A stretch of DNA of 38,317 bases from a virus. Made by a program: the position numbers and the translations under genes. Below the pieces are notes generated by a model. That model ran no database searches. It saw nothing but the letters and a program-made list of their open reading frames with translations, and had not been told where the DNA came from. Location of the stretch: the IMG/VR virus record IMGVR_UViG_3300009285_000031, positions 1 to 38,317 of that record, one strand, 5' to 3'. Numbering within the stretch: the first letter of the stretch is position 1; each line of letters begins with the position of its first letter. Below are positions 5,845-34,054 of this stretch, piece by piece.

Positions 5845-5847
5845 TCC

Positions 5848-8126: not shown

Positions 8127-8180
8127 CGTCGGACGTTGCAATTGTCAATTCACAATATTATAGTTTTTGGAGGCTGTTAT

Positions 8181-8676: not shown

Positions 8677-8698
8677 CGCATAGTCGAAGGCCGAAATA

Positions 8699-8790: not shown

Positions 8791-8793
8791 TAA

Positions 8794-9054: not shown

Positions 9055-9117
9055 AGACGCGAGCGCAGGACGTGGTGGTGGCACCGGTTATGGTCACTCA
9101 AAGAAAGGTGGCTCCAG

Positions 9118-12356: not shown

Positions 12357-12649
12357 TGGAGAAATGGATTGAAGCCAATAAAGCGTTGCCCCGATCAGGC
12401 GAGCGTGTTTTAGTTTACGGAATAAAACTACATAAGGTTACGATAGCGTGGTATAGTGAATTCAAAGAATGGCATTCGTTTGACGTTGGCCACAACGACA
12501 AAATATGGATGTTGAATGATTTTATAACGCATTGGAAAAAACTCCCTACACGTCCAAATGTAAAATGCCCTCACGATACCATTTTCGTATCTAACAATAA
12601 AGACGTTGTTTTATGTCAAGATTGCGGTAAGCATTTTAAAAAGAAGTAA
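12353..12649 (+). CDS. DUF551-domain protein with a C-terminal zinc-ribbon-like CxxC.
   Basis: The sequence WIEANKALPRSGERVLVYG...ITHWKKLPTRP fits the DUF551 pattern. The start overlaps the upstream stop. Confidence 0.6.
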   Translation: MMEKWIEANKALPRSGERVLVYGIKLHKVTIAWYSEFKEWHSFDVGHNDKIWMLNDFITHWKKLPTRPNVKCPHDTIFVSNNKDVVLCQDCGKHFKKK

Positions 12650-12708
12650 AAAAGATATGAGAATAAAATTAGTTTCTGTCGATTCGAAAAACTATTCAAG
12701 AGGAACAC

Positions 12709-13134
12709 ATGAAGCATAAAATCAAGCTCACCGATGTTTATTTGTTCAATTATTCAGACATGTTACTTCTGTATGGGTGTCTTTCGGAACGACCAAAAGT
12801 TGCAAACATCAGTCACGACGGAAAACTTCCTAAATTTGGAGATCATGTCGCCTTTGTTGAAAGTAAGCCGTATCGTGAATGGTATATAATCAAGGTCATG
12901 GTTGACGGAACCTGGATGAGCTGCGGAAATGTTTACATTACGAAAAACAATGAGATCGGAATTTTCATCCTGAAGTATTACCAGCGACGAGGTATCGCCC
13001 TGTCGGTAGTAAAAAGAATATCGACCGGGAAAGAGGTTTTTGCGAACATCGCGCCGAAGAATTATCCATCGCAGAAGCTTTTCAAGAAACTCGGGTTCGT
13101 TCACATTCAAAATACGTACAGGCGGTCAAAATGA
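12709..13134 (+). CDS. GNAT-family N-acetyltransferase (putative).
   Basis: The acetyl-CoA motif A-like sequence YQRRGIALSVV and the C-terminal KLFKKLGF are present. The ORF is 141 aa. Confidence 0.5.
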   Translation: MKHKIKLTDVYLFNYSDMLLLYGCLSERPKVANISHDGKLPKFGDHVAFVESKPYREWYIIKVMVDGTWMSCGNVYITKNNEIGIFILKYYQRRGIALSVVKRISTGKEVFANIAPKNYPSQKLFKKLGFVHIQNTYRRSK

Positions 13135-14153
13135 ACTATTTCATTTCAGGCGGAACCGGAACCATCGGGAAAGAGCTGGTTTCTCAACTGTTGTCAAAGG
13201 AAAATCTACTTCACCCAACGGAGAAAATCGTCATCTACTCACGCGACGAGGCGAAGCAGGCGGCAATGGCTGAAACATTCCCGCCGGGAGGAGCGTGTGG
13301 CATGCGGTACATCGTCGGCGATATATGCGACTACGACAGGCTCGTCTACGGAATGGAGGGCGCCCATGTCGTCATTCACGCTGCGGCAATGAAGAGAATC
13401 GACGCCTGCGAATACAACCCGATCGAGAGCCTGCGCGTGAACGTGACCGGATCTCTGAACGTCGCCAGAGCATGTATCGAGTGCGGAGTAAAGCAGGCTA
13501 TTTTTCTATCGACCGACAAGGCGTGTAACCCGTGTTCTGCTTATGGCGCACAGAAGGCGGCGATTGAGCGTCTATGGATCGGAATGAACAACATGACATC
13601 GAAGACGTGCTTCAACGTTGCGAGGTATGGGAATGTCTTCGGGTCTCGTGGATCGGTCATCGATAAGTGGAAAGCTGCCGCAGCCGCCGGCAAGGCGCTC
13701 ACAATAACTTCAACAGAAATGACAAGATTTTTTTGGAATATCGATGAGGCCGCATCGTTCATTATCAACCGCGTTGCAGATGCGGGCAGGAATTTTGATC
13801 GCGGCCTCATCTATATCCCTAAAATGAAGGCGCAGAAAATCGTCGATGTCGCTCTGTCGATCGGAAAAGAGATCAACGTCGTCGGGTTGCGATGCCCGGA
13901 AAAAATGAATGAAGATCTCATCAGTGAAGTAGAAGGCATGAGTGGATACGACCAGGGAGATTTTTACATCATTTACCCGATGCAACACGATTGGGCTGCG
14001 GATATCGGGACGAGAGGTAAGAATTGCGAAGACGGGTTCAGGTTATCTTCGTCAATCAACACAGGAGAATTTTGCGACACAAAACAATGCGATTCGCGGG
14101 ATTGCGGTGTTTGCAAAGTGGGTTATGGTAGAATTTGCGATAAACGTACTTAA
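13131..14153 (+). CDS. Nucleotide-sugar 4,6-dehydratase of the PseB/FlaA1/CapD family.
   Basis: The motifs ISGGTGTIGKEL, VIHAAAMKRIDACEYNP, STDKACNPCSAYGAQK and ARYGNVFGSRGSVI are present. Confidence 0.85.
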   Translation: MNYFISGGTGTIGKELVSQLLSKENLLHPTEKIVIYSRDEAKQAAMAETFPPGGACGMRYIVGDICDYDRLVYGMEGAHVVIHAAAMKRIDACEYNPIESLRVNVTGSLNVARACIECGVKQAIFLSTDKACNPCSAYGAQKAAIERLWIGMNNMTSKTCFNVARYGNVFGSRGSVIDKWKAAAAAGKALTITSTEMTRFFWNIDEAASFIINRVADAGRNFDRGLIYIPKMKAQKIVDVALSIGKEINVVGLRCPEKMNEDLISEVEGMSGYDQGDFYIIYPMQHDWAADIGTRGKNCEDGFRLSSSINTGEFCDTKQCDSRDCGVCKVGYGRICDKRT

Positions 14154-19831: not shown

Positions 19832-21646
19832 TTACCTCACCCCTCTCAAAGTGTAATGCATCGATATTTTGTAAAGCTTGAAATATTGCCCGACGGCATT
19901 CGTGGAGAACTTGAGCTGAATCGACCGGCTTACAACGTTTATCGGTACCCGAAAAACCTTCTGACCTGCAGTCGATCCCCACTTGTCAACTCCCCAGATG
20001 AATGTCCCCCACAACGATCCGTCGTTGCTCACGTCGGCGTTGAAACTACCTATTGTATCGGTGTGATAATCGGTGTTCCACGAGACTTCAACGTTCCAAC
20101 TTCCCGACACGTCGAGGGTTACGAGCGCGTACCGCCACACCTTCCAGTTGTCCCGGTGCTCATCGAGTCCGTGAATGTGCATCGTTTTGAAATACGAATC
20201 AATTGCGGCCCCGTTGTCGTCGTGCCCGTAATCGAGCCTGTGGATATACCCTGAATAATCTGACCCGTAAATCGTTCCGGCGAGGTTACAAAAGTCCTTT
20301 ATCGCCATACCGGTAAATCGCGACCATGCGCCAACCCCGACGGCATCTTTTCCCCTGACGAAATCGTATTGATAAATTCGATTATTCGTCGTTCCGGAAA
20401 GGTAAGGAACTGAGACCCATACCTTGTTTTTATACGTGATCGCCGTAGTGTTTTTGAGATAGGCCAGTACCCAGCTTTCAACGTCCGGCTCGACAGGATA
20501 AGTAAGGGCGGTCGAGTTCATCACGCCCATCTGAACCTGGCTTAAATCGTATACGCCGCCCTTGTTGAGCATCATGAGGAATGTTGAAAACCGGCACATT
20601 ACCTGAGGGCTGACCGATCCGTAAGAAAGATCGAGTTCTATCAGCGACCAGTTTGCCGGTGTGGAGTCCGGCATGTAAAGAACGAATACCTTTCCATTGC
20701 CGAACCCGTCTTCTTTTGCTATGACGAGTCCGTCGTTGTAAATCGCAAGTCCTCGGATCGTATACCCGTCACCGTCTCCTACACGGATATAATCCGACGG
20801 GTCCCACGCTTCCGGAGAGTTGATCTCGGAGTAATACAGGTTCGTCGTCGCCTCAGTCGCCCCGAACATGTACCCGCCATGGTACAGAAAGATGTTGATT
20901 GCCGGAGGGGTCTTCGACACGATGGCCGTATCTCTCGCCGTGGTAAGGGTGGCGTGAACGTCGCTCACCGAAACTCCGGCCGTAACCGTGTCGAGAAGGT
21001 AGTCATCACGGTAAACTGAAACGTAATTTATTCCGTGAGATACCGGGATCGCGTCGAAGGCGATGTTTACAGGAGAGCAGGTGTTCGTTATCGTGAACGT
21101 CTTCACCGGCGAGGCCGCGCTTTCGACGTTCGTCGAATTTATGAAAGCGAACCTATAAGAGTAGTCTACAACTCCGGCCGACCCGGCAAGGGTGCTGTTT
21201 CCGGAAACTATCGCCGATGCTGCTGCCGTCCCAGGGGTCGCCACTCCCCACACCGTAAAATCGGTGCCATCGTATTTGTACTTCGATGTCCCGTTGCTCA
21301 TGAAGGCGTAGTTTTGAGCATTTTCAGAATGAATGCGAACCCCGGCAGAGAATACGTCGGTCGAGCCGGTGATCGCCACAAGTGCGGTTCCGGACAATTC
21401 ATAAACGGTGCTGTACGCTGCAAGCAAAACCGATCCGGAATTCGACCGGTATGTATGGATCATATCGAGCGCTCCGGACGCGGCGTTTGAATTTACTTTC
21501 GCGTACCCGTTTCTTGTCCCGACGGCTCCAACGTCATCAAAAACGACGTTCTGCAGGTCAGGAGACTCGTTAGGCTCCCCTTGCAGCGCCGATATTTTAT
21601 TATTCAGGCCGCCGTCGAACTTGTTTATAACGAAACTGTATTTCAT
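19832..21646 (-). CDS. Putative tail (tubular or nozzle-like) protein.
   Basis: 604-aa ORF directly downstream of the adaptor-like gene. The N-terminus is INKFDGGLNNKISALQGEPNESPDLQNVVFDDVGAVGTRNGY. The call rests on position and general resemblance only. Confidence 0.4.
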   Translation of the reverse strand: MKYSFVINKFDGGLNNKISALQGEPNESPDLQNVVFDDVGAVGTRNGYAKVNSNAASGALDMIHTYRSNSGSVLLAAYSTVYELSGTALVAITGSTDVFSAGVRIHSENAQNYAFMSNGTSKYKYDGTDFTVWGVATPGTAAASAIVSGNSTLAGSAGVVDYSYRFAFINSTNVESAASPVKTFTITNTCSPVNIAFDAIPVSHGINYVSVYRDDYLLDTVTAGVSVSDVHATLTTARDTAIVSKTPPAINIFLYHGGYMFGATEATTNLYYSEINSPEAWDPSDYIRVGDGDGYTIRGLAIYNDGLVIAKEDGFGNGKVFVLYMPDSTPANWSLIELDLSYGSVSPQVMCRFSTFLMMLNKGGVYDLSQVQMGVMNSTALTYPVEPDVESWVLAYLKNTTAITYKNKVWVSVPYLSGTTNNRIYQYDFVRGKDAVGVGAWSRFTGMAIKDFCNLAGTIYGSDYSGYIHRLDYGHDDNGAAIDSYFKTMHIHGLDEHRDNWKVWRYALVTLDVSGSWNVEVSWNTDYHTDTIGSFNADVSNDGSLWGTFIWGVDKWGSTAGQKVFRVPINVVSRSIQLKFSTNAVGQYFKLYKISMHYTLRGVR

Positions 21647-22281
21647 TCACCCGTCTCCATCGGATCGTATTCGTTTACAACAGAATACATGTTTCTGTCT
21701 CGTCGCTGCTGCCAATCATGCTCGATGTCTTTCAGTCCTTCGTTCCATTCGTTTTTGAACGCGATCGCGGTTTCTTTCATTTCCTGATCCTTGAGGAACA
21801 TTCTCCATAGCGCGAAATCGGCGATATGCTGACCGTAGTCCTCCGGGATCGACCACCCCGTCGAAGCGGTGGTAACGGCGTCTGGATATCCTCGATACAT
21901 CGTTTTGAGGGTTTTCGCCGATGCCGGTATTGGAGAAAGATTTATCTCCTCCCCATACACATAATAATATCTCGGATTTCCTGTTGTGGTAACTCCGCCG
22001 TACGCCTCACCCTCTATTTTACCAATATCGTTGTGGTTTACACACTTCAACGAGACTTCGTCCCATGTGGCCCTGGTTATCACACCTGCGGGGGCAGAGT
22101 ACCCTCCGCGAACCCCGATGGAGGTTGTCGTCGTATGTGATTTTTCAATGAGGCCGATCTTTTTCGCGATTATTGATTCACCCATACTCATGTACTGGTA
22201 AATTTCGGCCTCACCCCAGAACGTGGTTTCAGACTCGTCGCACTGGTTGCGTATCAGCGTGTAAACATCTGATGGCGTCAT
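21643..22281 (-). CDS. Putative head-tail adaptor or connector protein.
   Basis: 212-aa ORF between the head-proximal genes and the tail protein. The call is positional. Confidence 0.35.
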   Translation of the reverse strand: MTPSDVYTLIRNQCDESETTFWGEAEIYQYMSMGESIIAKKIGLIEKSHTTTTSIGVRGGYSAPAGVITRATWDEVSLKCVNHNDIGKIEGEAYGGVTTTGNPRYYYVYGEEINLSPIPASAKTLKTMYRGYPDAVTTASTGWSIPEDYGQHIADFALWRMFLKDQEMKETAIAFKNEWNEGLKDIEHDWQQRRDRNMYSVVNEYDPMETGE

Positions 22282-22696: not shown

Positions 22697-23041
22697 TCAA
22701 TAATAGCAATGCACCACCGCTGCAAACGCCGCGGCGGTAGCCGTGTTCAAAGACAGGCAAACCTTGATATACGGGAGCAGGTTCATGTCCGCACTCACCG
22801 TAATGTTTCCCGTAGTTGCCGACGCGATCGAACTCACGTCGTTTATCGCTAGAGTCCTGAACGTCCCATCAGAAGCGTCGGACCCTTTCAGGTAAACCGT
22901 CACCGTCGAAGACGCAAGGCCGATTGACGCGGTTGGCAATTCCACCGAAACGAACTTAAACGACGCGACGTTTATCGCGCTGCTTTCGCTGTATCCGTCT
23001 GCTATTGTCGCCGCTATTTTCTGCATGTACCTTTCAGGCAT
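22697..23041 (-). CDS. Small Ser/Thr/Ala-rich structural-module protein.
   Basis: 114-aa ORF coupled to the upstream fibre gene. Confidence 0.45.
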   Translation of the reverse strand: MPERYMQKIAATIADGYSESSAINVASFKFVSVELPTASIGLASSTVTVYLKGSDASDGTFRTLAINDVSSIASATTGNITVSADMNLLPYIKVCLSLNTATAAAFAAVVHCYY

Positions 23042-23042
23042 T

Positions 23043-24599
23043 TTAATCTCCTTTAAAAACTTTATAAATGAAACTTCTTTTTCTTGATGCCGATACCGTC
23101 GGAAACGTCCAGTTGGTATTTCCGCCCCAGTTCAGGCTCGTTCCGTCGTTTGCGGTGATTTCAGCAGACGCCGCGCTATCCTGCGGGTTTTGATAAGTCA
23201 GTGTAATTATTCCAGGGATCGACAGATTGAAGGCAGTCCCAAGAATAGTTGATCTCCACTGCGTCAAAGCGCCGGCCGACCCATTCAGGTTTGTGTCGGT
23301 AACGTTTGACAATGTAAGCGTTCCGCCTGCGAGTACGGTGATTGTCCTCGATGTCGCCTTGGTCATTATCAACCTGTAGAGGGTGGTGCTTACAGAAAAT
23401 GAAGCATCCCCGGAACATGTTGTTGAAAAATTACCAGTTAAAGTTCCTTCCGTTACTGTAAAATCGTGAACGCTTAAAGCATCGGCAAGCGTAATGGTTT
23501 TTCCTGATGCATTAATAATAAGATCATAAAACAGTTTTGCATTGCTTGTTATTGTTGAAGTATTTGTAATGGTTACTTTTGATGTTCCGGGATCAATTGT
23601 ATGGTTACTTCCAAACGTCCAGTTGCCAGAACATGTCCATTGTGACGATTGAAAATTTTCAGATATCGTACAAGATGCATTGTATACAGAACCTGCAAAA
23701 GACGTAACCGAAAAAGTTCCTGAACTATAATCAAGTGTAACATTATTAGTTGTGGTAAACGCTCCGGATCTGAATGATCCACAAATTATATTTTGTCCGT
23801 TAAAGTCAAATGTTCCAGTACTGTTTGCATTTGCAACGGCAATGTCTAAATTTGCTGTACCTGCATTTATTGCGCCTGTTAATTGAAATGTCCATCCTGT
23901 TTTCGACGCGCCTGATTCAACTAATATTAATGGAGTATTTGTTGTTGTTATCGATGGAAGGGTTACAGTAATTGAATTTTCACCAACTTGAAAATTAATT
24001 GCTTGTGATCCAGATATGGCATATCCGCTTCCCAACGATGTAAATGCCGATGGTCCGGTTAAAACAAATTTAAGCGTTTTATTGTTTACCAAAGAAGAAG
24101 ATGCACCCATAATAAAAGGGGTGGTTACGTTTGAATATACACTTGCAGCATTGCCATTATTAGCGATCTTGGCATTTACACCTAAAATCAACATTTTAAA
24201 CGCGCACCCTTTATCGTCGTCAATCACCATCGCGGTCGTACCGTTCATCGTTACGACACAACTTGTTGCCGTTACCGTTCCGACTCCTGAGCCAACATGA
24301 AAAGTGGCCGAAGCGCCGCTCATGGTGATTCCGTTGCCTAAATTCAATGTCCCGATCCCATCGAAAGACACGTTGCCGTTTGCGCACGTAATCGAATACC
24401 CTGAAAACGTCATGTTGCCCGAATAGGTGGCTGCAACCGTAACGCTGTTCACGCTCAAGCTTTCTGTCGCAGTGGCATTCACGACAGACGTGTTATCAAA
24501 AACCAGGTCGTCTGTTGTAAGAAATGCTCCGGACCCGCTATAGTTGGCCACATCGTTTAAGTCGGTTGATGCTGCGCTTGACCATGTTCGTGTCGCCAT
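23043..24599 (-). CDS. Ser/Thr/Asn/Gly-rich fibre or spike protein (beta-helix-like composition).
   Basis: 518-aa ORF with repetitive short beta-strand-like segments (TVTATSCVVTMNGTT, ITVTLPSITTTNT). The central part is visibly AT-rich. Confidence 0.5.
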   Translation of the reverse strand: MATRTWSSAASTDLNDVANYSGSGAFLTTDDLVFDNTSVVNATATESLSVNSVTVAATYSGNMTFSGYSITCANGNVSFDGIGTLNLGNGITMSGASATFHVGSGVGTVTATSCVVTMNGTTAMVIDDDKGCAFKMLILGVNAKIANNGNAASVYSNVTTPFIMGASSSLVNNKTLKFVLTGPSAFTSLGSGYAISGSQAINFQVGENSITVTLPSITTTNTPLILVESGASKTGWTFQLTGAINAGTANLDIAVANANSTGTFDFNGQNIICGSFRSGAFTTTNNVTLDYSSGTFSVTSFAGSVYNASCTISENFQSSQWTCSGNWTFGSNHTIDPGTSKVTITNTSTITSNAKLFYDLIINASGKTITLADALSVHDFTVTEGTLTGNFSTTCSGDASFSVSTTLYRLIMTKATSRTITVLAGGTLTLSNVTDTNLNGSAGALTQWRSTILGTAFNLSIPGIITLTYQNPQDSAASAEITANDGTSLNWGGNTNWTFPTVSASRKRSFIYKVFKGD

Positions 24600-24602
24600 A
24601 AG

Positions 24603-25169
24603 TTACTCTTTCCAAGAAATAATATTTCCGGGAGTACCCCAAGGATACGTCGCCTGGAATACCCAGGTTTCGCTGTAGCATCCAGTTCCGGTAATACCGT
24701 CACCGACAACGTGTTGGCCCTGAACATGCCCGTAGACCGGCGTACCTATCGTTATGTCAATCTTCTCTGCAAACAACAAATCCCGCTCTGTTGCAAAGTA
24801 GTTTAGCACATGCGTCAGAAGATTGTCAGACTCGGATGCGAAGGGCCGATAATACGATTTGTAATTATCGAGAACAGTTCTTCCTGATCCGGCAATTGAA
24901 TATGACGATGCATTGTCTCGATCATATATACATCCTACTTCAAGAATGGCAAAATCATTAGAAAGGCTCGTTTGTGCCTTTACAAGAAAATATCCGTACA
25001 CGACGCCCGCAGCCTGGGAATCGGGAACTCCGATCACCTCACGGATATACGGTAGATTTCCGGCACCTATTGCAGCCGCCATATTAGGGCGACAGACTTT
25101 TACGGACCCGGAGATATCTCCCTGGTAATCAGTTTCAATTCCTTGCGCAAGATCAATTAATGTGGACAT
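24603..25169 (-). CDS. Hypothetical structural-module protein.
   Basis: 188-aa ORF. Confidence 0.45.
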   Translation of the reverse strand: MSTLIDLAQGIETDYQGDISGSVKVCRPNMAAAIGAGNLPYIREVIGVPDSQAAGVVYGYFLVKAQTSLSNDFAILEVGCIYDRDNASSYSIAGSGRTVLDNYKSYYRPFASESDNLLTHVLNYFATERDLLFAEKIDITIGTPVYGHVQGQHVVGDGITGTGCYSETWVFQATYPWGTPGNIISWKE

Positions 25170-25174
25170 TGTTT

Positions 25175-25459
25175 TTACCTCTCGTTTTGTATTTTAAACA
25201 GCAAATCGCGAATTTCGCGAATATCCTCTTTTATTTCAGAGAATCTGTTGTTGATTTCTTCTTTCAGTCCGTCGATATGGGAATGACAGTCTGCTTTCAG
25301 GACATAGTCATCCTTTTTTACTTCCGGCTTAACTTCCGGCTTTTTTGATCCACCGAACCACGGTCGAAATTTGCATGCCATAAACGCTATTACAATGGCG
25401 GCTGTCGGCCATGGGGCGGCGGAGAAGAACCGTTCAAGAATCCTGTAAATCTCATCCAT
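25175..25459 (-). CDS. Small membrane-anchored coiled-coil protein (possible lysis-related protein).
   Basis: One hydrophobic segment (WPTAAIVIAFMACKF) is followed by a charged helix. Confidence 0.35.
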   Translation of the reverse strand: MDEIYRILERFFSAAPWPTAAIVIAFMACKFRPWFGGSKKPEVKPEVKKDDYVLKADCHSHIDGLKEEINNRFSEIKEDIREIRDLLFKIQNER

Positions 25460-25470
25460 GCTAATCTTTA

Positions 25471-25896
25471 CTAATCTTTAACGAAACAACTAAGCGTATC
25501 GAGAACGGACGCTTTGCCGGTTTTGGGAATCATATCGACCGAAATGTAATGTATTTCGATGTCGATGTTCTCATTTAAATAGGCAAGCCTGTCGCCGATG
25601 TGCCTCTCGATCTTTTCGTCATATTCCGGATTGATCCCGTGCTCAAGTCCGGCATAACGATTTCCAATTATTATCGGCTTTCCTGATTCGTCCTTCGAGC
25701 AGAACTTCAGAGAGAGTATTCGCTCCTGCTTCTGCGATGCGGAAACCAATTCCTCGATCTCGTCAACAATTCTTTTCAATTTCCCTTTTGTTTTGTTGAG
25801 GGCATAAACCACCTCGAAGGCGAGTTCCGTTTCAGAATTCAGCGTCGCTTCGATTTTTGCCGAAAGTTCGCGAACTTCAATCCGTGTCATTTCCAC
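25471..25896 (-). CDS. Hypothetical protein.
   Basis: 141-aa ORF. Confidence 0.45.
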   Translation of the reverse strand: MEMTRIEVRELSAKIEATLNSETELAFEVVYALNKTKGKLKRIVDEIEELVSASQKQERILSLKFCSKDESGKPIIIGNRYAGLEHGINPEYDEKIERHIGDRLAYLNENIDIEIHYISVDMIPKTGKASVLDTLSCFVKD

Positions 25897-26345
25897 TTTG
25901 CTTCTCCTCTTAAATGTTCGTAATTGCCTTTTATCTCGTTGACGTTCTTAAATCTCAACAGCTTCCTGATGAACCCGTATGAGTCCGTCGATATTCCCCG
26001 CCATTCCCTCTCCTTTTCAAGTTCCACCCAAAACCCCTTGACGGGCGAATAAATTATTGAATAATCGGGCTGTCCTTTATAATAATTGCAGCATGGCAAA
26101 CCGTTTTTTATCAGTTCGAGAGGCTCGCTCAACATTACATCCCAATCGATGTATAAAATGTCGTCATACCTCATTAGTATGTCGAATCTATACAGATCGG
26201 AGAGTTTTACAGGGTTCTCCACTTTTGCAAACTTGAATATTGCCACGTCATGGTAAAACTCTCTGACGCTCTCCATGCATCGAAGAACCTTTTCGGGTGC
26301 GTCTCCATATATAATTTGAACGGTTTTCATATTATGCATGCACAA
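25887..26345 (-). CDS. Putative glycosyltransferase, GT32-like with a DXD motif.
   Basis: LSDLYRFDILMRYDDILYIDWDV resembles the SD..R..iL...GG.Y.D.D signature. The start is ambiguous (26345, 26339 or 26330). Confidence 0.4.
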   Translation of the reverse strand: MCMHNMKTVQIIYGDAPEKVLRCMESVREFYHDVAIFKFAKVENPVKLSDLYRFDILMRYDDILYIDWDVMLSEPLELIKNGLPCCNYYKGQPDYSIIYSPVKGFWVELEKEREWRGISTDSYGFIRKLLRFKNVNEIKGNYEHLRGEAKWK

Positions 26346-27861
26346 TCTTTACTGCGTCCCCGGTTCGATACAGCATTCCAGTAGTTAAACCGCCGGCGAC
26401 CGCTGCTGCGTTGTCGGCGAATTCCTGGCACGTTCCCACGGTGGCCCTTCCCATCGTCATGTTTCCGTTTGAAAGATCGACGGTCGCCCTCTCTGTGGCA
26501 TTCTGCCTGAAGCTGAAAACGTGTGAGGATACGTCATAATAAAGACCGGTATCGGCATCTTCTTGAACTTTTATTATATAATTTGAAGCATTGTGGAATG
26601 TCAATGTATTGATGTCGGTTATATTATTATCCTTTACACTAATAGTTCCATTATAACTAATTCTCATTCTCTCGGCTAACCCACCACCATCCTCATAATA
26701 GGTTTTAAACAGCAGATCACCATGAGGATGGGTATTGCCCATCCCTGTGCCGACGGCTTCAATCGTTGACAACACCACAACAGTACCATATAAATCTTCA
26801 GTAACGAACTCTAATCCTGTTCCCATTCCGTCAGCAGCATCACCTGATGTAAAATGAGATAATCTGGCTGCATATGTTACTGAGTCCGTCACCGCATCCT
26901 CCACGCTCGACTCAAGGCGTCTTTGAGCGGATGATGTTCCTATACCTACATTACCATCTGTATAGTATAAATCAGAGATAAATCTCTGCCAATGATAGTC
27001 AGCTCCCATGCCATGCGCCGTACCGTCATCATTTACTTTTTCTAATGACTCTACTAATATATAGATACCATACGCGGATGCGTGATTCGTCCATGCAACC
27101 ACATTACTACCGGATATAGATAGCTGCGGGTTGTTTCCTGATGTACCACTCATCGACACCGCTCTAGCTACCCATGTTGTTGTATTTTGTATATAATGTA
27201 CAATGTAAAGTGCCCCCGAGTCCGTTGATGTTGTTCCAGTCGTCAGAGATATTTTATAATTATAGTTTACATTTAGCGTTGTACCGTGTTCGAGGTTCAG
27301 GGTTACGTTGAAACCATTAACCACTCCAGCCCCGGTAGTTATACCAGATGTCTGATGATATTTTCTCCCCCCGAATTGAGCAGATCCGTTAACGGTTAAC
27401 GTTTCAGCGGGAGAAGTGGTTCCGATTCCAAGTCGAGTATTTGCGACATCGTAATAAAGGTTGCTTTCGTTGAACGCCGTTGCCGAAGAGGCGTATGGAA
27501 TATATGGCGTAGAGACTCCGTGAGCAGCAGGGGCAGCGCCAACGTCTGAATATGTCAACCCGTGAGCAGCCCACGCCGCTTCTGTTCCGTTTGACTTTAA
27601 AAAATATCCGTTTGTTCCTATCGGAAGTCGCCGCCACTTTGGAGTAGCTGTCTGTCCGGTAATAATATCACCTCTGGTGACGGTCCCCGCCGTGGTGTCT
27701 CCGTGAGTAGCGGAAAGGAAATCGTGGTTCAAACCTGTCACGTCACCAGTAAACGACACCGCACCGGTAACGGTCTGCGCAGCAGTGCCGTTCTTACGAA
27801 GATAGCGGTTGTCGTTGTACTTGAGGTTGCTTACCCTCTGCGTGTCAGATGCGAATTGCAT
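26332..27861 (-). CDS. Tail or head fibre protein.
   Basis: 509-aa ORF. The segments NTRLGIGTTSPAETLTVNG and GNVGIGTSS are typical of phage fibre shafts. Confidence 0.6.
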   Translation of the reverse strand: MQFASDTQRVSNLKYNDNRYLRKNGTAAQTVTGAVSFTGDVTGLNHDFLSATHGDTTAGTVTRGDIITGQTATPKWRRLPIGTNGYFLKSNGTEAAWAAHGLTYSDVGAAPAAHGVSTPYIPYASSATAFNESNLYYDVANTRLGIGTTSPAETLTVNGSAQFGGRKYHQTSGITTGAGVVNGFNVTLNLEHGTTLNVNYNYKISLTTGTTSTDSGALYIVHYIQNTTTWVARAVSMSGTSGNNPQLSISGSNVVAWTNHASAYGIYILVESLEKVNDDGTAHGMGADYHWQRFISDLYYTDGNVGIGTSSAQRRLESSVEDAVTDSVTYAARLSHFTSGDAADGMGTGLEFVTEDLYGTVVVLSTIEAVGTGMGNTHPHGDLLFKTYYEDGGGLAERMRISYNGTISVKDNNITDINTLTFHNASNYIIKVQEDADTGLYYDVSSHVFSFRQNATERATVDLSNGNMTMGRATVGTCQEFADNAAAVAGGLTTGMLYRTGDAVKIVHA

Positions 27862-27862: not shown

Positions 27863-28102
27863 TTATGTGCCGAAAATCATGACCTGGAACGTTGCTGCCG
27901 ACGCGGCGGTACACGCGATTATCGATCCTCCGGTATGGCTGATATTCGCCTGCGTTGCGCTGTTATCAACGACAAAAAATATGCTGTTGAATCCTGCGTT
28001 TGCCGAAGATCCTGCCGCCCCGTCCGTCATTGTCAACGTTCCGACCCTGACACGGCACGCGCCGAAAACGTCTTCATGAGATACCGTAAAAGTGTTTGCC
28101 AT
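27863..28102 (-). CDS. Small Ser/Thr/Ala-rich hypothetical protein.
   Basis: 79-aa ORF. Confidence 0.4.
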   Translation of the reverse strand: MANTFTVSHEDVFGACRVRVGTLTMTDGAAGSSANAGFNSIFFVVDNSATQANISHTGGSIIACTAASAATFQVMIFGT

Positions 28103-28114: not shown

Positions 28115-29170
28115 TCAAAACAAGAGATGAAGTTTCCCGCCGACCGACTTTTCAAGCATCGACGGCATCCGTTTATACATGCAGAATATCTGCAGCGCGG
28201 ATTTTAAATCCATCTGCAGAATCTGTTTGATATTTCCCTCGTGATAGGCTCCCATGATTCCGCCTTCGGTCGCATTGATCCACAACTGAGGATTGTTCCC
28301 GGTCCCGCCGCACGCCATGAAGTCAAACCAGTTTTTAAATCCGAAATACGACTGCCACGTCCATACGCGGTTCCCGAAAACGTCAATCCATGGGATAACA
28401 CCGGAGAATTTCTCGTTGTACCAGCAATCCCAGGCGTGGAATTTGTGGTCGTATGAGAAACAGAGATCCATCCCGACAAAGATGGGGACCGAGCATCCGA
28501 GAATCGCCCTTGAAAAGTACAGCGCCGCACCCATCACGTTCCCGCCGACGTTGAAGCCCGGGACTTTCGAGATATCAACAATTTTGAAAATCTCCTTCGC
28601 AAGCTCTTCAGATGCGCACGGGGTGGTATACCACAAAATCGGACCTCTCCACCTTTTAATGAAATCCGGATGAGTCCCGTGGTACGCGACAAGCGTCCGG
28701 TTCTCCGTCTTCTGCCAGTACCAGTCAGGTGTGTCGGCGTGCGCTCCGCCTTCCGACATCTCTTTGATGCAGATGTCTCCGGCGTCAAGGATAAGGTAAA
28801 AATCATCAGGTCGCATCAGGTTGCGATCTTCCATGAACGGGAAGTTGTGAACATTCGTCACCATCCTGACATCCTGGCGCCCGATCGATCTGTCTCCGTC
28901 GCCGATAAGATCTTTCCAGTTTCTCGAAAGCGACGGACCCGCCCCTGCGAGGATAACCGGACGACCGGCGCAAGCCTCGAAAACCTGATACGCGCTATCT
29001 TTAATGAAATCATGGGTTCCGGAGTTCACCTTCGTCTGTTCAATCCACTGCTTTTCCCACGTCTTTACCGTAACCCCGTCATTGCGAACCGCATTGTTCC
29101 AGGCAGCCTCTTTGCCGAGAGGTATGCCCTCAATGTACGGGCTGTATTGCAGAGTCATTTCAACTTGCAT
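28115..29170 (-). CDS. Maf/DUF115 (MptE-like) family protein, a putative nonulosonic-acid glycosyltransferase.
   Basis: The motifs GRPVILAGAGPSLSRN, MRPDDFYLILDAGD and VGGNVMGAALYFSRAILGCSVPIFVGMDLCFS match the conserved blocks I associate with the DUF115/Maf flagellin-glycosylation family. Confidence 0.55.
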   Translation of the reverse strand: MQVEMTLQYSPYIEGIPLGKEAAWNNAVRNDGVTVKTWEKQWIEQTKVNSGTHDFIKDSAYQVFEACAGRPVILAGAGPSLSRNWKDLIGDGDRSIGRQDVRMVTNVHNFPFMEDRNLMRPDDFYLILDAGDICIKEMSEGGAHADTPDWYWQKTENRTLVAYHGTHPDFIKRWRGPILWYTTPCASEELAKEIFKIVDISKVPGFNVGGNVMGAALYFSRAILGCSVPIFVGMDLCFSYDHKFHAWDCWYNEKFSGVIPWIDVFGNRVWTWQSYFGFKNWFDFMACGGTGNNPQLWINATEGGIMGAYHEGNIKQILQMDLKSALQIFCMYKRMPSMLEKSVGGKLHLLF

Positions 29171-29189: not shown

Positions 29190-29211
29190 GTGGCGGGAGT
29201 TACCCCGCCAC
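29190..29211 (-). other. 8-bp GC hairpin between the decoration-like gene and the Maf-like gene (possible attenuator).
   Basis: GTGGCGGG-agttac-CCCGCCAC. There is no clear U-tract on the minus strand. Confidence 0.35.
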
Positions 29212-29220: not shown

Positions 29221-29718
29221 TTACGCGCAATTCACAAACACGGTGAACGTGCAGAGCGCCGTTGCCGCCGACGCGGCGGTAAGCGCCACACCGACGAACG
29301 GGTAAAGATTCCCAGTTGTCGCCGAACGAGAACGGAAAGCACCGCTACCATCAAGCGCAACGCCCTGACCGGCAGTCGTTCCGGAATTGGAATAACACGC
29401 CGGGACCGCCCCCTTGACGACGACCCAGCCGTAATTACGAGCCGGGATGTCGTTGTGGTACACGACGCCGCCAATATCAAAATCGCCCGCAGTCGAGCTG
29501 ACCGTAAGGCTGTACCCGGATGTCGCCGATGCGTTGGCGCCGATCCGTACCATTGCGTAACCGACTGACGCGGTGGAAGAGGATTTGTTGTAGATGTACT
29601 GATACTTCAAACCTCCACTCCATCGTTCGGTCCCGATTTCAACGGAGTTCGTCGCCGTTACCTGGCTGACACTCTCCTCGATTATTTGCTGCAGTCCACT
29701 GATACTCATGGCTTTCAC
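29221..29718 (-). CDS. Putative capsid decoration or auxiliary head protein (Ser/Thr/Ala/Gly-rich).
   Basis: 165-aa ORF immediately downstream of the major capsid gene. The call is positional. Confidence 0.4.
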   Translation of the reverse strand: MKAMSISGLQQIIEESVSQVTATNSVEIGTERWSGGLKYQYIYNKSSSTASVGYAMVRIGANASATSGYSLTVSSTAGDFDIGGVVYHNDIPARNYGWVVVKGAVPACYSNSGTTAGQGVALDGSGAFRSRSATTGNLYPFVGVALTAASAATALCTFTVFVNCA

Positions 29719-29725: not shown

Positions 29726-30643
29726 TTAAACGAGCGCGGTCATCATACCGTGCATTCTGTTGTTGTTGGACGTCATCGCACCGGTCCAGAAAATCTGCGC
29801 CACTTTGACGTTCTGGTTTGTCGGCTGACGGAATCCGGAGAATCGGAAATTCTCATCCTTGTGGGCGATGAGCTGAATATAGTTCTCATTGACAACGTAC
29901 AAGTATCCGCTGTCAAGGTGCGAATCGACTACGACGGGAATGCCGTTGAAGATCAGATTTTTGAACCCGGCCTTCAGGGTTTCCTCGTCGGCAAAACGCT
30001 GCTGCGGCTGAATTGCCGCCCACAAGTCGTCGAATTGATCCTGTTTGAGAAACACCACGGTCGGCGAATCGCTGTCAACCGTGCAGTCTCCGAGCAACGC
30101 CTGAAGAGAAGAAGGTGTAAGTGCGGTGGTCGTCGAATCGACGTGGCCTTGCCACCATGAGTACGTCCCCTTGGCGATGGTTCCGTGCGTGCCGGTTGCC
30201 GCGCAGATCATCTTTAGACCCTCGAAGGTGTTCGTGGTTGTCCCGTCACCGAAAATGGCGGTCCCGAGCTTATCTTTGAGGGTTTTCTCCGCCATCTGCA
30301 CCTTTGCCTTCAGGTGATTGATGATCGCGTTCTTCCCCGCGTTCTTCAGCTCGTCGAGGCGGGTAATCTGAATCGATGCGTATGCCTGTTTCCAGTCCCA
30401 TATCGCATCGGTGATCTGCTGGTTGTCATCGGTAAGCAGGGTTCCTGAACCGCTGTACCATCCCGCGCTCGTGGTCTGAGCATAGGCGAGAGGTTGGGTA
30501 ATCTGCGTGCCGCCATCGACGGTATCGTACCATCCGCGCTTTTTTGCTCTCTGCAATGCCGCGTTGCTGGCGAAAATATTGTCAACCAGCTTCGGTATCA
30601 GATATTTCTGAGTCAGTGCAGAGATTTCGGCTGTCAATGCCAT
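29726..30643 (-). CDS. Major capsid protein.
   Basis: 305-aa ORF downstream of the scaffold-like gene. The N-terminal pattern LIPKLVDNIFASNAALQRAKK...GGTQITQPL and the overall layout are typical of phage major capsid proteins. Confidence 0.75.
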   Translation of the reverse strand: MALTAEISALTQKYLIPKLVDNIFASNAALQRAKKRGWYDTVDGGTQITQPLAYAQTTSAGWYSGSGTLLTDDNQQITDAIWDWKQAYASIQITRLDELKNAGKNAIINHLKAKVQMAEKTLKDKLGTAIFGDGTTTNTFEGLKMICAATGTHGTIAKGTYSWWQGHVDSTTTALTPSSLQALLGDCTVDSDSPTVVFLKQDQFDDLWAAIQPQQRFADEETLKAGFKNLIFNGIPVVVDSHLDSGYLYVVNENYIQLIAHKDENFRFSGFRQPTNQNVKVAQIFWTGAMTSNNNRMHGMMTALV

Positions 30644-30657: not shown

Positions 30658-31554
30658 TTAAGTTTTGAGTTCCGAGGCCATCCGGCGGGCAATGTCATTA
30701 TACGACATCCCCGGCTGATAGCCGCCCTTTTGCGGGGCACCACCTGGGGATGCTCCGCCTTGTACCACCCCCGCCCTGTTCGCGGCCTGTTTCGCGGCTG
30801 CCGCCTTTTTCAAAGCGTCCGCCCTCGCGTTCGTCCCGTTCTGCGGTCCCATGAAAGCCCAGTATGCATGGTCAAGGCTTGAGATTCCGCTTTCCAGAGC
30901 GAACCTTACGATCTGCTGCTGCAGCGTCCCGGTCCCGTCGTCGAATTCCCAATCGTGGTCAGGGTGGTCTGCCTTGAGCTTTTGAGCGCTCTCCTGCAAA
31001 CGCCTGTCGTATTCAAGGTTGATTCGTTCGGTGTTGTGGCTCTTCAGCTCTTCGATCTCGCTTTTCAATTGCGAGTAAAGCTGAACATTGGGGCCACCGG
31101 GCTGCTGTCCCTGAGACTGCATCTCCTGGATTGTCGCAGCGATTTTTTCCGCCAGCTGCGGGTTGCTCTTGAGCATTTTGTCGAACTCGTCATAGTGCCC
31201 GTACTGTTTCTTCAGTCCGTCAAGCTGTTGCTGAAGCTGAGTACGCTCAGTTTTGAAGCGTCCCATTTCCTGCTCGTATGAAAATCCTTTCTGGGCGAGA
31301 TTGGTCAGCTCTTCCCTGGTTTTCGGAACGTATGGCTGTCCGCGATACTTCAGCGCCCATTGCTTTCCGTCGAAAACCTGCTGTTGTCCCTGGCTGTTTG
31401 TCTTCTGATCACCTGCCTGAGGCTGTCCTCCCGGCTGCTGGCCGTCGGCCTGCTGTTGCGGTTGCGATCCACCTTGAGGCTGGTCACTCTGCGGCTGTCC
31501 GCCTACATCGTCAGTCAGTTCGCCTTCCATCTCTATCCCGTCATTATCTGCCAT
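30658..31554 (-). CDS. Scaffolding protein (putative).
   Basis: A Q/G/P-rich acidic N-terminus is followed by long coiled-coil-like segments. The gene lies between the portal and the capsid gene. Confidence 0.55.
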   Translation of the reverse strand: MADNDGIEMEGELTDDVGGQPQSDQPQGGSQPQQQADGQQPGGQPQAGDQKTNSQGQQQVFDGKQWALKYRGQPYVPKTREELTNLAQKGFSYEQEMGRFKTERTQLQQQLDGLKKQYGHYDEFDKMLKSNPQLAEKIAATIQEMQSQGQQPGGPNVQLYSQLKSEIEELKSHNTERINLEYDRRLQESAQKLKADHPDHDWEFDDGTGTLQQQIVRFALESGISSLDHAYWAFMGPQNGTNARADALKKAAAAKQAANRAGVVQGGASPGGAPQKGGYQPGMSYNDIARRMASELKT

Positions 31555-31842: not shown

Positions 31843-32202
31843 TTAAATGACTGACACCTGACCGCGTTGCGCCCTGGCTCCGCCGCTCATGTTGCCGAGC
31901 ATGGGGTTGACCCCGCGCCCGCCTCCCGGGGCCTGCGCCTGCGGCATACCTGGCTGCTGCGATTGCTCCTCTGCTTGTGGAGCCATATTCGATCCGTCCC
32001 CTGCCTTTTTTCCGAGAGCCTGAACAAACTGGCTCATGATCGACTGCAACTCCGTAGCCGCCGGGTCCCCCTGCTCCGACAGTGCTGCGATGTAGGTTCC
32101 GATCGTTCGCACCGCATCGAGTATCGGGTTTTCCGGAGGGGTCTGACCGCCACCGTCCTGCGCCATCTGCTGTTCACCTTGCATTTCTTCAGGCATTTGC
32201 AT
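31843..32202 (-). CDS. Hypothetical head-module protein.
   Basis: The start at 32202 (MQMPEE) is preceded by AGGGAA and was preferred over 32241, which overlaps the portal gene more deeply. Confidence 0.4.
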   Translation of the reverse strand: MQMPEEMQGEQQMAQDGGGQTPPENPILDAVRTIGTYIAALSEQGDPAATELQSIMSQFVQALGKKAGDGSNMAPQAEEQSQQPGMPQAQAPGGGRGVNPMLGNMSGGARAQRGQVSVI

Positions 32203-34054
32203 TTTGATTCCCTGGTTCCGGCGCAGGAGGTCCGCCGCCACCCGGCGGGGGCATCGCTGCCGCCTGTTTCTCTTCCATACGCTGTTCTACCTGTTCGGCG
32301 TTCGGCCATTCCAGCGTTTCGAGCAGTTCTTTTCCGTCAATGACCTGCGAGTCGAACAGTTTGAAAGCGATATTCGCCCGGGTAGTCTTCGCCCATGGCA
32401 TAGCCGTACCGCCCATGATTTTGATATCCATTAGCCCCTTTGTCGGAGCGCTCGTTGTGTACGTCGGTTCCGCCATGTAGCTCTGCGTCTGCGGGTCGAA
32501 CACGTAATTTTTTTTATTGAGAACGAATTGCCCTTTGTCGGTTTCCTCGATGAAGAACTCGAAATACTCCGGCCACACGTTGCTCTTGCCGGTGATGCGC
32601 GCTACGCGCGGCTCCCGGTAGAACTGCATCATGAGCGCCATGATCTGCGTGCCAAGCTGCTGAAGCGAAACCTGCAAATTACGCTCTTTTGCGCGTATTC
32701 GCGTTTGTGAAGCCTCTTGCAGGTTTTCGATTGCCGATGCCGCGGTGATGCCGGCCGGGCGGCGCCCTTGTGAAATCTCCGAGATCCCGCTTATCTGCTC
32801 AGCCTGCGTGATGAGAGTCCGGTAAATCTCCATCATTCCGGATTGCAGGCCGGGAGGAAAATCGCGCCTGACAGAATCTTTTTTCCCGGCAGCTACCTTG
32901 ATTACCGCAGACACCTGATTGGTGATAGTCTCTGGATCGACTCCTGAATCCTCCTCGACAATCCATATCGGATTCGCCATGAGCTGCATCACGTCGAAAA
33001 TGTGCGCGAGAGTTTTATTGATGATCTTCTGCGTCGGCATGAGAGACTTGGCTTCGCCCTCGCCGTAGAAATCGCCCGGGAGAATCGTGTCGATGATCCG
33101 GACGAAGGGCTTTTTTCCGTGTGCATACGGTGCCTCAACCGATTGCAAGAGCAGGTTTTGGTTCGGTAGTATCGTGATGAGCTTTCCTTTTGGGAATTTC
33201 TTCCTCACGACTTTCTCAACATTTCCGTTGCCGTCGTCCCGCTGCTCCTCGATGAGCGATTCGTCGTCGATCCAGCATTCTGCGACATCGCATAGCTTTC
33301 TATCGTCCGCCGACTCTCCCATGCCGGCCATGCCTTTAGGCGAGTACTGGTCGGTAGGGCTTACGAGCTTCAGGTCATCGGATTTCGATACCTTTTCAGT
33401 CCCGTCCTTTGCACTGTCCGCCTTGATCATATCAACCATGTCGGGGAAGAGGCGACGCAGCAGGCCAACCGGTTTCTGCGTCTTGTGCACCACCCACCCG
33501 CAGTTTTTCGTGAAATCCTGGCACCCTCGGGGAACGTAGATGTCTCGTGGGTCAACATTCTCAACATTCACGTCGCCGATCCCGTCCTCAAGAGTCGGGT
33601 CCCATGTGACCTTGAGAACTCCGCAGTCGTAAAGCATTGAGCAGAAAATGGCCTCGATGAGCGTGTGATCCATCCCGGAGTTGTCCCACCAGTTTTCAAT
33701 CAGCGTCGCCATGCACTGCGAGAACTGATAGTCTGAAGGGTCACGCGCCATCGGGTTGAAGCCGGGCCGCTGGTCGGTGAGAATGGGAATCGTCGCCTGA
33801 ATAATCTGACGGATGATATTCATTACTGGTTTGCTGCGGGCGTTCGCTCCTGTTTTCCATTGCTTCCCTTTGTAAAAGTCGAGCCGATCCTCCCAATCCT
33901 CGTCGAATTTCGACCGGTACGCCTTTCCCTCCTCGATGAGATTGAGAACGAGGCGCACCTCCCGCTCCTCCTCGGCGCCCTGTCCTGCCTGCTGTCGATT
34001 GTCAGGTCCGGCTATGACGGAATTCGGATCTATCGGTCTGGTAGCTTCACGCAT
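32189..34054 (-). CDS. Portal protein.
   Basis: 621-aa ORF downstream of the terminase genes. The N-terminal WEDRLDFYKGKQW motif is typical of portal proteins. Confidence 0.75.
   Translation of the reverse strand: MREATRPIDPNSVIAGPDNRQQAGQGAEEEREVRLVLNLIEEGKAYRSKFDEDWEDRLDFYKGKQWKTGANARSKPVMNIIRQIIQATIPILTDQRPGFNPMARDPSDYQFSQCMATLIENWWDNSGMDHTLIEAIFCSMLYDCGVLKVTWDPTLEDGIGDVNVENVDPRDIYVPRGCQDFTKNCGWVVHKTQKPVGLLRRLFPDMVDMIKADSAKDGTEKVSKSDDLKLVSPTDQYSPKGMAGMGESADDRKLCDVAECWIDDESLIEEQRDDGNGNVEKVVRKKFPKGKLITILPNQNLLLQSVEAPYAHGKKPFVRIIDTILPGDFYGEGEAKSLMPTQKIINKTLAHIFDVMQLMANPIWIVEEDSGVDPETITNQVSAVIKVAAGKKDSVRRDFPPGLQSGMMEIYRTLITQAEQISGISEISQGRRPAGITAASAIENLQEASQTRIRAKERNLQVSLQQLGTQIMALMMQFYREPRVARITGKSNVWPEYFEFFIEETDKGQFVLNKKNYVFDPQTQSYMAEPTYTTSAPTKGLMDIKIMGGTAMPWAKTTRANIAFKLFDSQVIDGKELLETLEWPNAEQVEQRMEEKQAAAMPPPGGGGPPAPEPGNQNANA

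Follow-up and report, generated by a model that had tools for sequence, protein, structure and literature searches.

The window analysed here, a 38,317-nucleotide stretch of viral DNA (IMG/VR record IMGVR_UViG_3300009285_000031, positions 1 to 38,317), makes up nearly all of a 38,574-bp groundwater-metagenome contig. On its minus strand, at 28115-29170 and among the head genes of the phage, it carries a gene for a 351-residue protein that resembles the central catalytic domain of the Maf flagellin glycosyltransferases. The explanation we favour, and to which we assign about an even chance, is that this minimal Maf-type enzyme putatively O-glycosylates proteins of the head surface with a nonulosonic acid or 3-deoxy-D-manno-oct-2-ulosonic acid (Kdo) activated by cytidine monophosphate (CMP), and that it would do so in the cytoplasm during head assembly. 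An earlier note on this DNA, made from the letters alone, had proposed a transferase of the DUF115/Maf family at this position and self-glycosylation of the virion.

The open reading frame (ORF) starts with ATG behind a GAGGAG ribosome-binding site and does contain the blocks quoted in that note (AGAGPSL, PDDFYLILDAGD and VGGNVMGAALYF...FVGMDL), as well as the strings ILAGAGPSLSRN, RPDDFYLILDAGD and FNVGGNVMGAALYF...FVGMDLCF. A PF01973 profile search and a structure-based search, both of which the note had suggested, agree on the Maf family. Against Pfam PF01973 (MptE-like/DUF115/Maf_flag10) the protein scored 44.8 bits with an E-value of 1.5e-11, and since this is above the gathering score of 34.6 the match is not a chance one; a precomputed PF01973 match was also present on all but 1 of 120 listed homologues. 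Searches of NCBIfam and PHROGs with the same protein gave no match. The AlphaFold (AF2) model, built on an alignment of 51 metagenomic homologues with 38-76% identity to the window protein, reached a predicted local distance difference test score (pLDDT) of 95.4 and a predicted template-modelling score (pTM) of 0.93. When it was compared with the PDB by Foldseek, the Maf protein of Magnetospirillum magneticum (MmMaf, 5MU5) ranked first (E 1.5e-7, TMq 0.50 over 303 columns), with the archaeal MptE kinase 8SD5 (E 8e-5) second and human ST8SiaIII sialyltransferases (E 2.5e-3) third.

The same relationship was seen from the sequences. A profile of the phage family found 5mu5_A with E 6.1e-5, and together with the Foldseek result this places the model in the modified GT-A-like fold of the Maf central domain. 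An exhaustive search of 1.84 billion representatives with the family profile gave 5,529 relatives with E-values no higher than 1e-3. These include proteins of about 600-630 residues which align through residues ~195-450 over nearly the full profile, and two of these, from Thermotalea and Alicyclobacillus, which carry the NCBI name 'motility associated factor glycosyltransferase', were found with E-values of about 1e-23 to 1e-24, the matches spanning profile positions 36-331 and 36-296.

Four motifs are common to the phage family and the annotated Mafs, namely (A/G)(A/S)GPSL..N, (L/V/I)D(A/G)G, GG(S/N/H)V...G.D(L/F) and (N/D)ATEGG, and in the window protein they take the forms AGAGPSL, LDAG, GGNV...GMDL and NATEGG. 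Residues GPS 78-80 and E302-G303-G304 are invariant in the 51 sequences, and so is D129 of LILDAG, which the HMMER alignment to 5mu5_A puts on MmMaf E324 and which corresponds to D272 of the Clostridium botulinum protein (CbMaf) and D285 of the Geobacillus kaustophilus protein (GkMaf). The second acid, D235 of VGMDL, is at least 90% conserved in the same set and aligns with the Asp of GQDL in annotated Mafs; it sits 23-24 residues past the GGS/GGN motif, as in the spacing from S334 to D357 of CbMaf, and presumably equals MmMaf D415, where the 5mu5 alignment ends short of that residue. For the bacterial enzymes, E324 and D415 of MmMaf and D272, D357 and S334 of CbMaf are needed for activity, the S334A variant being inactive, and an Ala mutant of GkMaf S356 is likewise inactive (Khairnar et al., 10.1101/2020.06.03.131540).

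The 351-residue protein has neither the N-terminal domain nor the C-terminal TPR domain that bacterial Mafs possess. In Shewanella, flagellin is bound by Maf-1's C-terminal TPR domain and by a separate factor, GlfM, in the case of Maf-2 (10.1101/2023.12.03.569772), and the lack of these acceptor-recognition modules in the phage protein argues against flagellin as its target. Three features that define Mafs were thus not found, i.e. the conserved Ser, an acceptor-recognition module and a flagellar gene context, and we have therefore filed the protein as one that would work like a Maf and not as a flagellin Maf. Judged by sequence and predicted fold it is a genuine, although atypical, relative of the Maf branch in which most of the active site is intact, and its catalytic activity is predicted on these grounds.

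The position of the gene is as constant as its motifs. At least 153 homologues of the transferase were found, nearly all on phage-sized contigs (up to ~40 kb) and none named beyond 'hypothetical protein'. We fetched 83 related loci with flanks of up to 10 kb and compared them with the proteins of the window, giving 84 loci in all. The order major capsid, protein of about 160 residues, PF01973 protein, all on one strand, was observed in 80 of the 80 loci with upstream sequence; the other four start too near a contig end and were excluded from the count. This agrees with the placement by the earlier note of the transferase gene in the late head module beside the capsid and decoration genes. At every locus examined the transferase gene lies between the capsid-decoration genes and the gene for the head-to-tail adaptor. 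A sister clade, which has a GGHV motif and scores 177 bits against the profile, shows the order portal, scaffold, capsid, 165-residue protein, PF01973 protein, 77-residue protein, adaptor.

The transferase also diverges much as the core virion proteins do. Median identity to the window is 48% for the major capsid protein, 39% for the PF01973 transferase, 32% for the portal and 28% for the adaptor, and transferase identity correlates with that of the capsid (rho 0.41) and of the portal (rho 0.53). Such divergence, together with the fixed position, points to an old, vertically inherited gene of the head module. A recently acquired accessory gene (moron) was considered and rejected, as the divergence tracks capsid and portal and the position never varies.

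Relatives of the capsid protein, at 30% identity or less, occur in cultured phages including Mx8, Mx9, Stenotrophomonas phage BUCT555 and Bradyrhizobium phage ppBjS10J-1. With clade profiles, neither the transferase nor its two small neighbours, p160 and p85, were detected in Mx8, BUCT555, ppBjS10J-1 or the uncultured Manatee Spring podovirus MW202803, and all three were detected in the distant GGHV (L100) clade. By this sequence comparison, which involves four outgroups that are not phylogenetically independent, p160, the transferase and p85 appear to behave as one cassette. Searches of 50,697 GenBank phage records by megablast with 10 kb of the late region, and by tblastn with the window protein and the marine homologue P0097, found nothing, so at that sensitivity no cultured phage carries the gene.

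The protein encoded immediately upstream of the transferase, p160, is most likely the leading candidate for the acceptor, on the grounds of its genomic context. Its gene spans 29221-29709 on the minus strand (162 residues from ATG, or 165 from a GTG at 29718), and a homologue is found at the same position in 73 of the 84 loci. An AF2 model built on an 18-sequence alignment gave Foldseek matches, all at probability 1.0 and with template-modelling (TM) scores of 0.5-0.7, to the capsid of the Haloferax virus HFTV1 (8qsy), the head-fibre base gp8.5 of phi29 (6qyy/6qvk), the cement protein of cyanophage Pam3 (8hdt_G), the T1 decoration protein (9kzj_I) and the TW1 stabilising protein (5wk1_K), with lambda gpD as a weaker match. 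As modelled, p160 thus has a capsid-decoration fold, in line with the decoration-like gene that the earlier note had read at 29221-29718. Ser and Thr make up 22% of p160 and 23% of p85 (window median 11%), and the Ser/Thr columns S15, T18, T20, S61, S64, S67, S71 and T132 of p160 are kept across the clade. A match of the p160 profile to the 153-residue 'coat protein' of PDB chain 6yfl (E 0.0015) was judged to be compositional and left unused.

The major capsid protein (305 residues, 29726-30643, minus strand) is an alternative or additional candidate acceptor. It matches phrog_9953 with E 5.6e-54, as expected from its annotation in the earlier note, and has homologues in 80 of the 84 loci. Across 78 sequences, a run at its residues 170-176 (STTT..T) consists of Ser/Thr to at least 94%; in the four outgroups that lack the transferase it is degraded, i.e. 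weaker or absent.

The gene directly after the transferase encodes p85, a conserved small protein of 79 residues (27863-28102, minus strand), and an ORF of 79-92 residues is found in this position in 75 of the 84 loci. No PDB or Pfam match was obtained for p85, and no homology between p160 and p85 was detectable by hhalign (probability 0.8%). It may be a further decoration protein, serve as an acceptor or confer specificity. The earlier note had expected a fibre gene downstream of the transferase; instead p85 is next, and the 509-residue protein that follows it gave no match and occurs in 3 of the 84 loci only.

Between the stop codon of p160 and the ribosome-binding site of the transferase lies a GC-rich hairpin (29190-29211, minus strand; 8-bp stem with 7 G-C pairs). 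In 47 of 73 loci (z < -2; median z -3.0) the decoration gene has a hairpin of similar stability behind it. Its position, seen also in L004-L015 and others, is conserved and its sequence is not; in some relatives a T-run lies 3' of it, as in an intrinsic terminator. The hairpin is probably an attenuator or an mRNA-stabilising element. Its position upstream of the transferase suggests that the level of the transferase is probably below that of the capsid and decoration proteins, which fits abundant transcripts for those proteins and less read-through into the gene of an enzyme of which smaller amounts would do. In three close relatives a micro-ORF of 12-14 codons was seen after the decoration gene (L004, ~9920-9970; L005, ~9890-9935; L006, ~9905-9945). 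It encodes M/V-G-C-G and a Lys/Gly-rich tail (e.g. MGCGKKKKGKPK) and is absent from the window.

A possible source of the donor sugar is encoded on the plus strand of the window. The cluster consists of genes for a short NeuB-family (nonulosonic/ulosonic acid) synthase of 211 residues that lacks the C-terminal SAF domain (9411-10046; PF03102, 69.9 bits), a 205-residue protein with a weakly GFO/IDH/MocA oxidoreductase-like N-terminus (10043-10660; PF01408, E 0.0038, below cut-off), a CTP_transf_3 cytidylyltransferase that would make the CMP-activated sugar (10647-11216; PF02348, 24.9 bits against a cut-off of 22.6, with weak matches to the KdsB family), a class-III (HemL-like) aminotransferase (11217-12356; PF00202, 85.5 bits), a GNAT N-acetyltransferase (12709-13134; PF08445, 34.2 bits) and a PseB-like 4,6-dehydratase of uridine diphosphate N-acetylglucosamine (13131-14153; PF02719, 239.5 bits; TIGR03589, 281.8 bits against a cut-off of 407.75). 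Of the six enzyme types in a route resembling that to CMP-pseudaminic acid, five are thus represented, the class of the aminotransferase being unusual. Neither a hydrolase of PseG/NeuC type nor a DegT-type aminotransferase was found in the cluster. The presumptive CMP-sugar donor pathway that the earlier note had placed at 9411-14153 is accordingly a real cluster of nonulosonic-acid type but an incomplete one, the hydrolase being the step that was not found.

The NeuB of the window has an intact N-terminus and internal deletions, and its matches to the PseI and NeuB TIGRFAM models are far under the equivalog cut-offs. The six sugar genes are collinear in a relative (L093/L006) whose transferase is 73% identical to that of the window, and they share 53-68% identity with their counterparts there: NeuB 53% (215 residues, 2558-3205), the GFO/IDH/MocA-like protein 60%, the cytidylyltransferase 56%, the aminotransferase 63%, the GNAT protein 57% and the PseB-like protein 68%. 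Conservation of the short NeuB in this relative suggests that it is under selection, as a minimal form and not a pseudogene. An unrelated DUF551 ORF (12233-12649, E 7.5e-6) was noted between the aminotransferase and GNAT genes of the window, overlapping the 3' end of the former; tblastn found no counterpart in the cluster of L093, where the aminotransferase and GNAT genes abut.

Sugar genes in the other loci were surveyed by iterative hidden Markov model searches of the fetched sequences and an alignment-based scan for PseB. In a more distant clade (~40% identity) a gene for a full-length NeuB of 305-357 residues immediately precedes the terminase gene and has the same orientation as the transferase gene. 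Of the 36 loci whose upstream flank reaches 9 kb or more, 19 have NeuB 7.0-8.7 kb upstream of the transferase, at the head of the late operon. A tblastn search with one such NeuB, which gives a rough base rate, matched only 2 of the 50,697 GenBank phage records. Genes for PseB-like and GFO/IDH/MocA proteins lie 3' of the tail genes in L003 and L102, and in L102 the GFO_IDH_MocA gene follows the PseB-like one. Co-occurrence of DUF115 with NeuB and PseB genes in viral metagenomes, which the earlier note had proposed to survey, is therefore seen in this clade. Among 97 representative flank ORFs scanned with Pfam, NeuB was the only sugar gene seen at up to 10 kb from the transferase, and in single-protein scans of viral contigs that need exact 8-mers the NeuB of the window had no match and its PseB matched 7 loci.

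Maf from C. botulinum accepts both N-acetylneuraminic acid (Neu5Ac) and Kdo donors (10.1101/2020.06.03.131540), which makes host CMP-Kdo or other host CMP-sugars plausible fallback donors.

We propose the following sequence of events. The transferase would be translated late in infection from the transcript of the head genes, probably at a level below that of the capsid and decoration proteins. In the cytoplasm it would take a CMP-activated 2-keto-3-deoxy acid of eight or nine carbons, either a sugar of pseudaminic or legionaminic type from the phage cluster or, where the pathway is partial, a host CMP-sugar such as CMP-Kdo. The sugar would be O-linked to Ser or Thr residues of head-surface proteins, with p160 as the first candidate, followed by the capsid protein and p85, and the released virion would carry an acidic glycan coat on its head. 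Phage heads assemble in the cytoplasm, and the enzyme would have to act there. For flagellin, PMC4065374 describes glycosylation by Maf in the cytoplasm before chaperone binding and export.

Several observations weigh against this proposal. The Ser that is essential in CbMaf is replaced by Asn in the phage clade (N211 of GGNV, at least 90% conserved) and by His (GGHV) in the sister phage clade; the same column holds Ser in 12 of 13 aligned proteins of Maf length (581-981 residues), 3 of the 13 being confirmed as named Mafs, and the chemistry or the donor could therefore differ. The sugar pathway of the window is incomplete and its NeuB is truncated to 211 residues. With the PseB, NeuB and cytidylyltransferase matches all under the equivalog cut-offs of NCBIfam, no exact sugar can be assigned. 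Of the loci with sufficient flank, only some half have NeuB, and few have a cytidylyltransferase within the 10-kb flanks. The confidence of the p160 model is moderate (pLDDT 70.5), a high Ser/Thr content is widespread among the surface proteins of phages and has no discriminating power, and the contrast in the capsid Ser/Thr motif and in the cassette is drawn with four outgroup phages that share phylogenetic history. The clade has no cultured member among the GenBank phage records searched. We infer the catalytic activity, the donor, the acceptor and any benefit to the phage, be it stability, shielding or adhesion, from genomic context and comparison, and virion glycosylation in this lineage is likewise a reading of its genes.

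An alternative, which the earlier note had also raised and which we regard as unlikely, is that the enzyme is a Maf-type transferase acting on a host acceptor such as flagellin, pilin or an S-layer protein, which would alter the surface of the infected or lysogenic cell, for example to exclude superinfecting phages or to keep the progeny from being caught on cell debris. Flagellin is indeed the acceptor of every characterised Maf, and some relatives are temperate, L003 having an integrase. Against this stand the absent terminal domains, as flagellin recognition resides in the TPR domain or in GlfM, and the fixation of the gene in the head module of all 80 loci and of the sister clade. Genes for lysogenic conversion are usually variable and have promoters of their own; the pattern here is unlike theirs, and no sigma-70-like promoter was found upstream of the transferase gene on the minus strand. 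Late expression close to lysis would also leave little time to remodel an exported structure.

It is improbable, in our judgement, that the protein has a non-enzymatic role in head assembly or structure, or binds a nucleotide sugar without transferring it, the sugar genes then serving some other purpose such as remodelling of host surface polysaccharide. The transferase is as universal and as conserved as core virion proteins, the Maf Ser is replaced and no PHROGs family matches, all of which would suit such a role. A purely structural protein, however, needs none of the four active-site motifs or the two catalytic acids, and these are invariant or nearly so among homologues at 38-76% identity. 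The upstream hairpin, moreover, suggests expression below that of the capsid and decoration proteins, and NeuB is encoded in the same operon in many relatives.

Some other PF01973 chemistry or a non-protein acceptor, i.e. pyrophosphoryl transfer as by MptE in pterin/folate metabolism, or transfer of a sugar to DNA, lipid or polysaccharide, could be argued from the naming of the Pfam family after archaeal MptE, the second rank of 8SD5 in the fold search, a RibD_C/DHFR-like protein in the window (7110-7631, E 1.2e-18) and the many DNA-modification genes of the relatives (Mom, Tet_JBP, methylases), but we rate it improbable, as the profile similarity to 8sd5_A is non-significant (E 0.28) and confined to the nucleotide-binding loop at positions 65-98 where annotated Mafs align over ~260-295 positions, the NATEGG and GxDL motifs are common to Mafs, the gene is in the head module and not among early metabolic genes (RibD_C, the sole folate-like gene, being ~20 kb away on the other strand), and the recurrent companion is NeuB and not folate genes.

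The remaining genes of the window fit a podophage with a portal of P22/SU10 type, an SU10-type adaptor and a terminase. Early and sugar genes occupy the plus strand (~1-14150), and the late genes on the minus strand (14243-36233) converge on them. The portal gene (32189-34054, minus strand) matches phrog_156 with E 6.9e-50, and PF16510 and PF23899 are found on the identical gene of the source contig. Between portal and capsid lies a gene for a scaffolding-like protein of 298 residues with a Gln/Gly-rich N-terminus (30658-31554, minus strand), which has homologues in 28 of the 84 loci and weak, sub-threshold matches of coiled-coil type. The adaptor gene (21643-22281, minus strand; PF24175, E 1.3e-17; 73 of 84 loci) marks the end of the head-decoration interval. 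No tRNA genes were found in the window. A host scan against genome contigs hit only contigs of metagenome-assembled genomes (MAGs) with inconsistent bin taxonomy (Saccharibacteria, Glaciecola, Actinomycetota, Sphingomonadales). In the early region we also noted a RusA gene (3977-4432), a DUF3799 PDDEXK protein (2352-3230) and, within 5131-6749, a 237-residue protein matching only the first ~80 of 324 positions of a C5 cytosine methylase model and a 286-residue protein with a weak radical-SAM match.

The interval from p85 to the adaptor (22697-27861) is a variable insertion zone. In the window it holds the 509-residue protein mentioned above (26332-27861, minus strand), a variable accessory gene product with 20.8% Ser+Thr for which no Pfam domain above threshold, no PHROGs family and no PDB-sequence match was found, and a 518-residue protein with 29% Ser+Thr and no relatives among PDB sequences. 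In L004 the zone encodes proteins of 1100 and 726 residues with DUF2341 and LVIVD matches, and in L002 and L003 it holds small genes only. The proteins of this zone may be head fibres or surface proteins of another accessory kind.

Related arrangements were encountered outside the clade. Eight viral contigs of 24-110 kb (L135, L139, L141, L157, L160, L177, L179 and L183) carry longer PF01973-like ORFs (~425-890 residues raw, 28-92 bits against the phage profile), with a PseB-like gene 2-4 kb away in seven of the eight and ~6 kb away in L177; the longer of these contigs may be prophage regions. Pairs of a Maf-like transferase and a sugar cluster may thus be more widespread in viruses than this clade. 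On podophage contigs with distantly related portal and capsid proteins (L116, and also L110 and L125), a sugar cassette is found inside the structural operon. In L116 (8827-16785), the only one annotated, it has head genes on one side and a gene for a Gp53-like tail fibre on the other, and encodes NeuB, a PseB-like protein, an aldo/keto reductase, a class-III aminotransferase, proteins of 302 and 438 residues and a CTP_transf_3 protein. The family profile detected no PF01973 protein in these three contigs, and one of the 302- and 438-residue proteins of L116 may represent another kind of transferase. On a 65.6-kb contig of a Sphingomonadales MAG (L089, 6494-20749), a distant PF01973 homologue (27% identity) was seen amid PseB-like, cytidylyltransferase and NeuB genes; this is probably a cellular glycosylation island and a possible outgroup.

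Among known systems the closest are the flagellin Mafs themselves, i.e. those of M. magneticum (5MU5), C. botulinum, G. kaustophilus and Aeromonas caviae (Maf1) and Maf-1 and Maf-2 of Shewanella. The phage protein shares with them PF01973 and the modified GT-A-like fold, the GxGPS nucleotide loop, both catalytic acids, the ATEGG motif and linkage to genes of NeuB/PseB type, and like them it is expected to act in the cytoplasm, on a structural protein that self-assembles and has not yet left the cell. It differs in its length (351 against ~600-630 residues), in lacking the N-terminal domain, TPR and GlfM, in having Asn for the essential Ser, and in lying in a head-gene module, with a capsid-surface protein as its presumed acceptor, instead of in a flagellar glycosylation island with flagellin. 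Archaeal MptE (8SD5) has in common with it the Pfam family name, a Rossmann-like core and the nucleotide-binding loop; its length is ~215-240 residues, the similarity is limited to ~35 residues, and it has another substrate and pathway and no link to sugar or capsid genes.

As for p160, the beta-tulip decoration and cement proteins (lambda gpD, TW1 gp56, T1, Pam3 and the phi29 gp8.5 base) resemble it in fold and size, in being encoded directly behind the capsid gene and in having a disordered N-terminal arm, and have no detectable sequence similarity to it. We know of no such protein among those named that is encoded beside a dedicated glycosyltransferase, and no capsid glycosylation is reported in the HFTV1 paper.

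Glycosylation of phage virions as such has a precedent. Reportedly, the mycobacteriophage systems employ other glycosyltransferase families and hexose-type glycans, in actinobacterial hosts and without a nonulosonic-acid pathway. According to PMC11256854, which cites Freeman et al. 2023 (Cell Host Microbe), phage-encoded glycosyltransferases covalently glycosylate the capsids of Che8 and Rita, so that, as in our proposal, phage enzymes modify the phage's own capsid proteins in the cytoplasm and a glycan-coated virion results; in the same text the glycosyltransferase genes of Maravista are described near the 3' genome end and not fixed within a head module. With glycosylation documented in Che8 and Rita, the view in the earlier note that such a system was undescribed for tailed phages is too broad, while no Maf or nonulosonic-acid version of it was found. 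In the full-text literature, where subscription journals are thinly covered, nothing linked Maf/DUF115 to phage particles or nonulosonic acids to phage capsids, and BFVD holds only uncharacterised 'MptE-like' proteins of uncultured phages. What is new here is probably the Maf-type, nonulosonic-acid version, phage virion glycosylation being already known from the mycobacteriophages.

Taken for the lineage as a whole, we put forward tentatively, as a possibility a little short of even, that uncultured podophages with a P22-type portal and an SU10-type adaptor from groundwater, freshwater and marine sources coat their capsids with sialic-acid-like sugars, of pseudaminic/legionaminic type or Kdo, by means of a domain-stripped Maf in a fixed three-gene cassette. 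Phage particles are generally regarded as unglycosylated, the mycobacteriophages being the one documented exception that we found among tailed phages. If the proposal is true, these phages would provide the first non-flagellin substrate of a Maf and the first phage particle decorated with nonulosonic acid, and a second, mechanistically unrelated system in more than 100 metagenomic relatives from several habitats would mean that capsid glycosylation arose more than once. The glycan might serve the stability or assembly of the head, as in flagellar filaments, or act as a mimic or shield against recognition by the host and the environment. Acidic nine-carbon sugars on the capsid would alter its surface charge, its adsorption to particles and mucus and its recognition by antibodies and lectins, and could bias the recovery of such phages in viromes. 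The system would also offer a naturally minimal Maf with a small soluble acceptor, tractable for studies of donor and acceptor specificity that have so far been confined to flagellin, and possibly a means of modifying proteins or virus-like particles site-specifically, in a sialylation-like manner. Finally, it would recast the NeuB and PseB genes on the contigs of this clade as genes for virion construction and not for reprogramming of the host surface.

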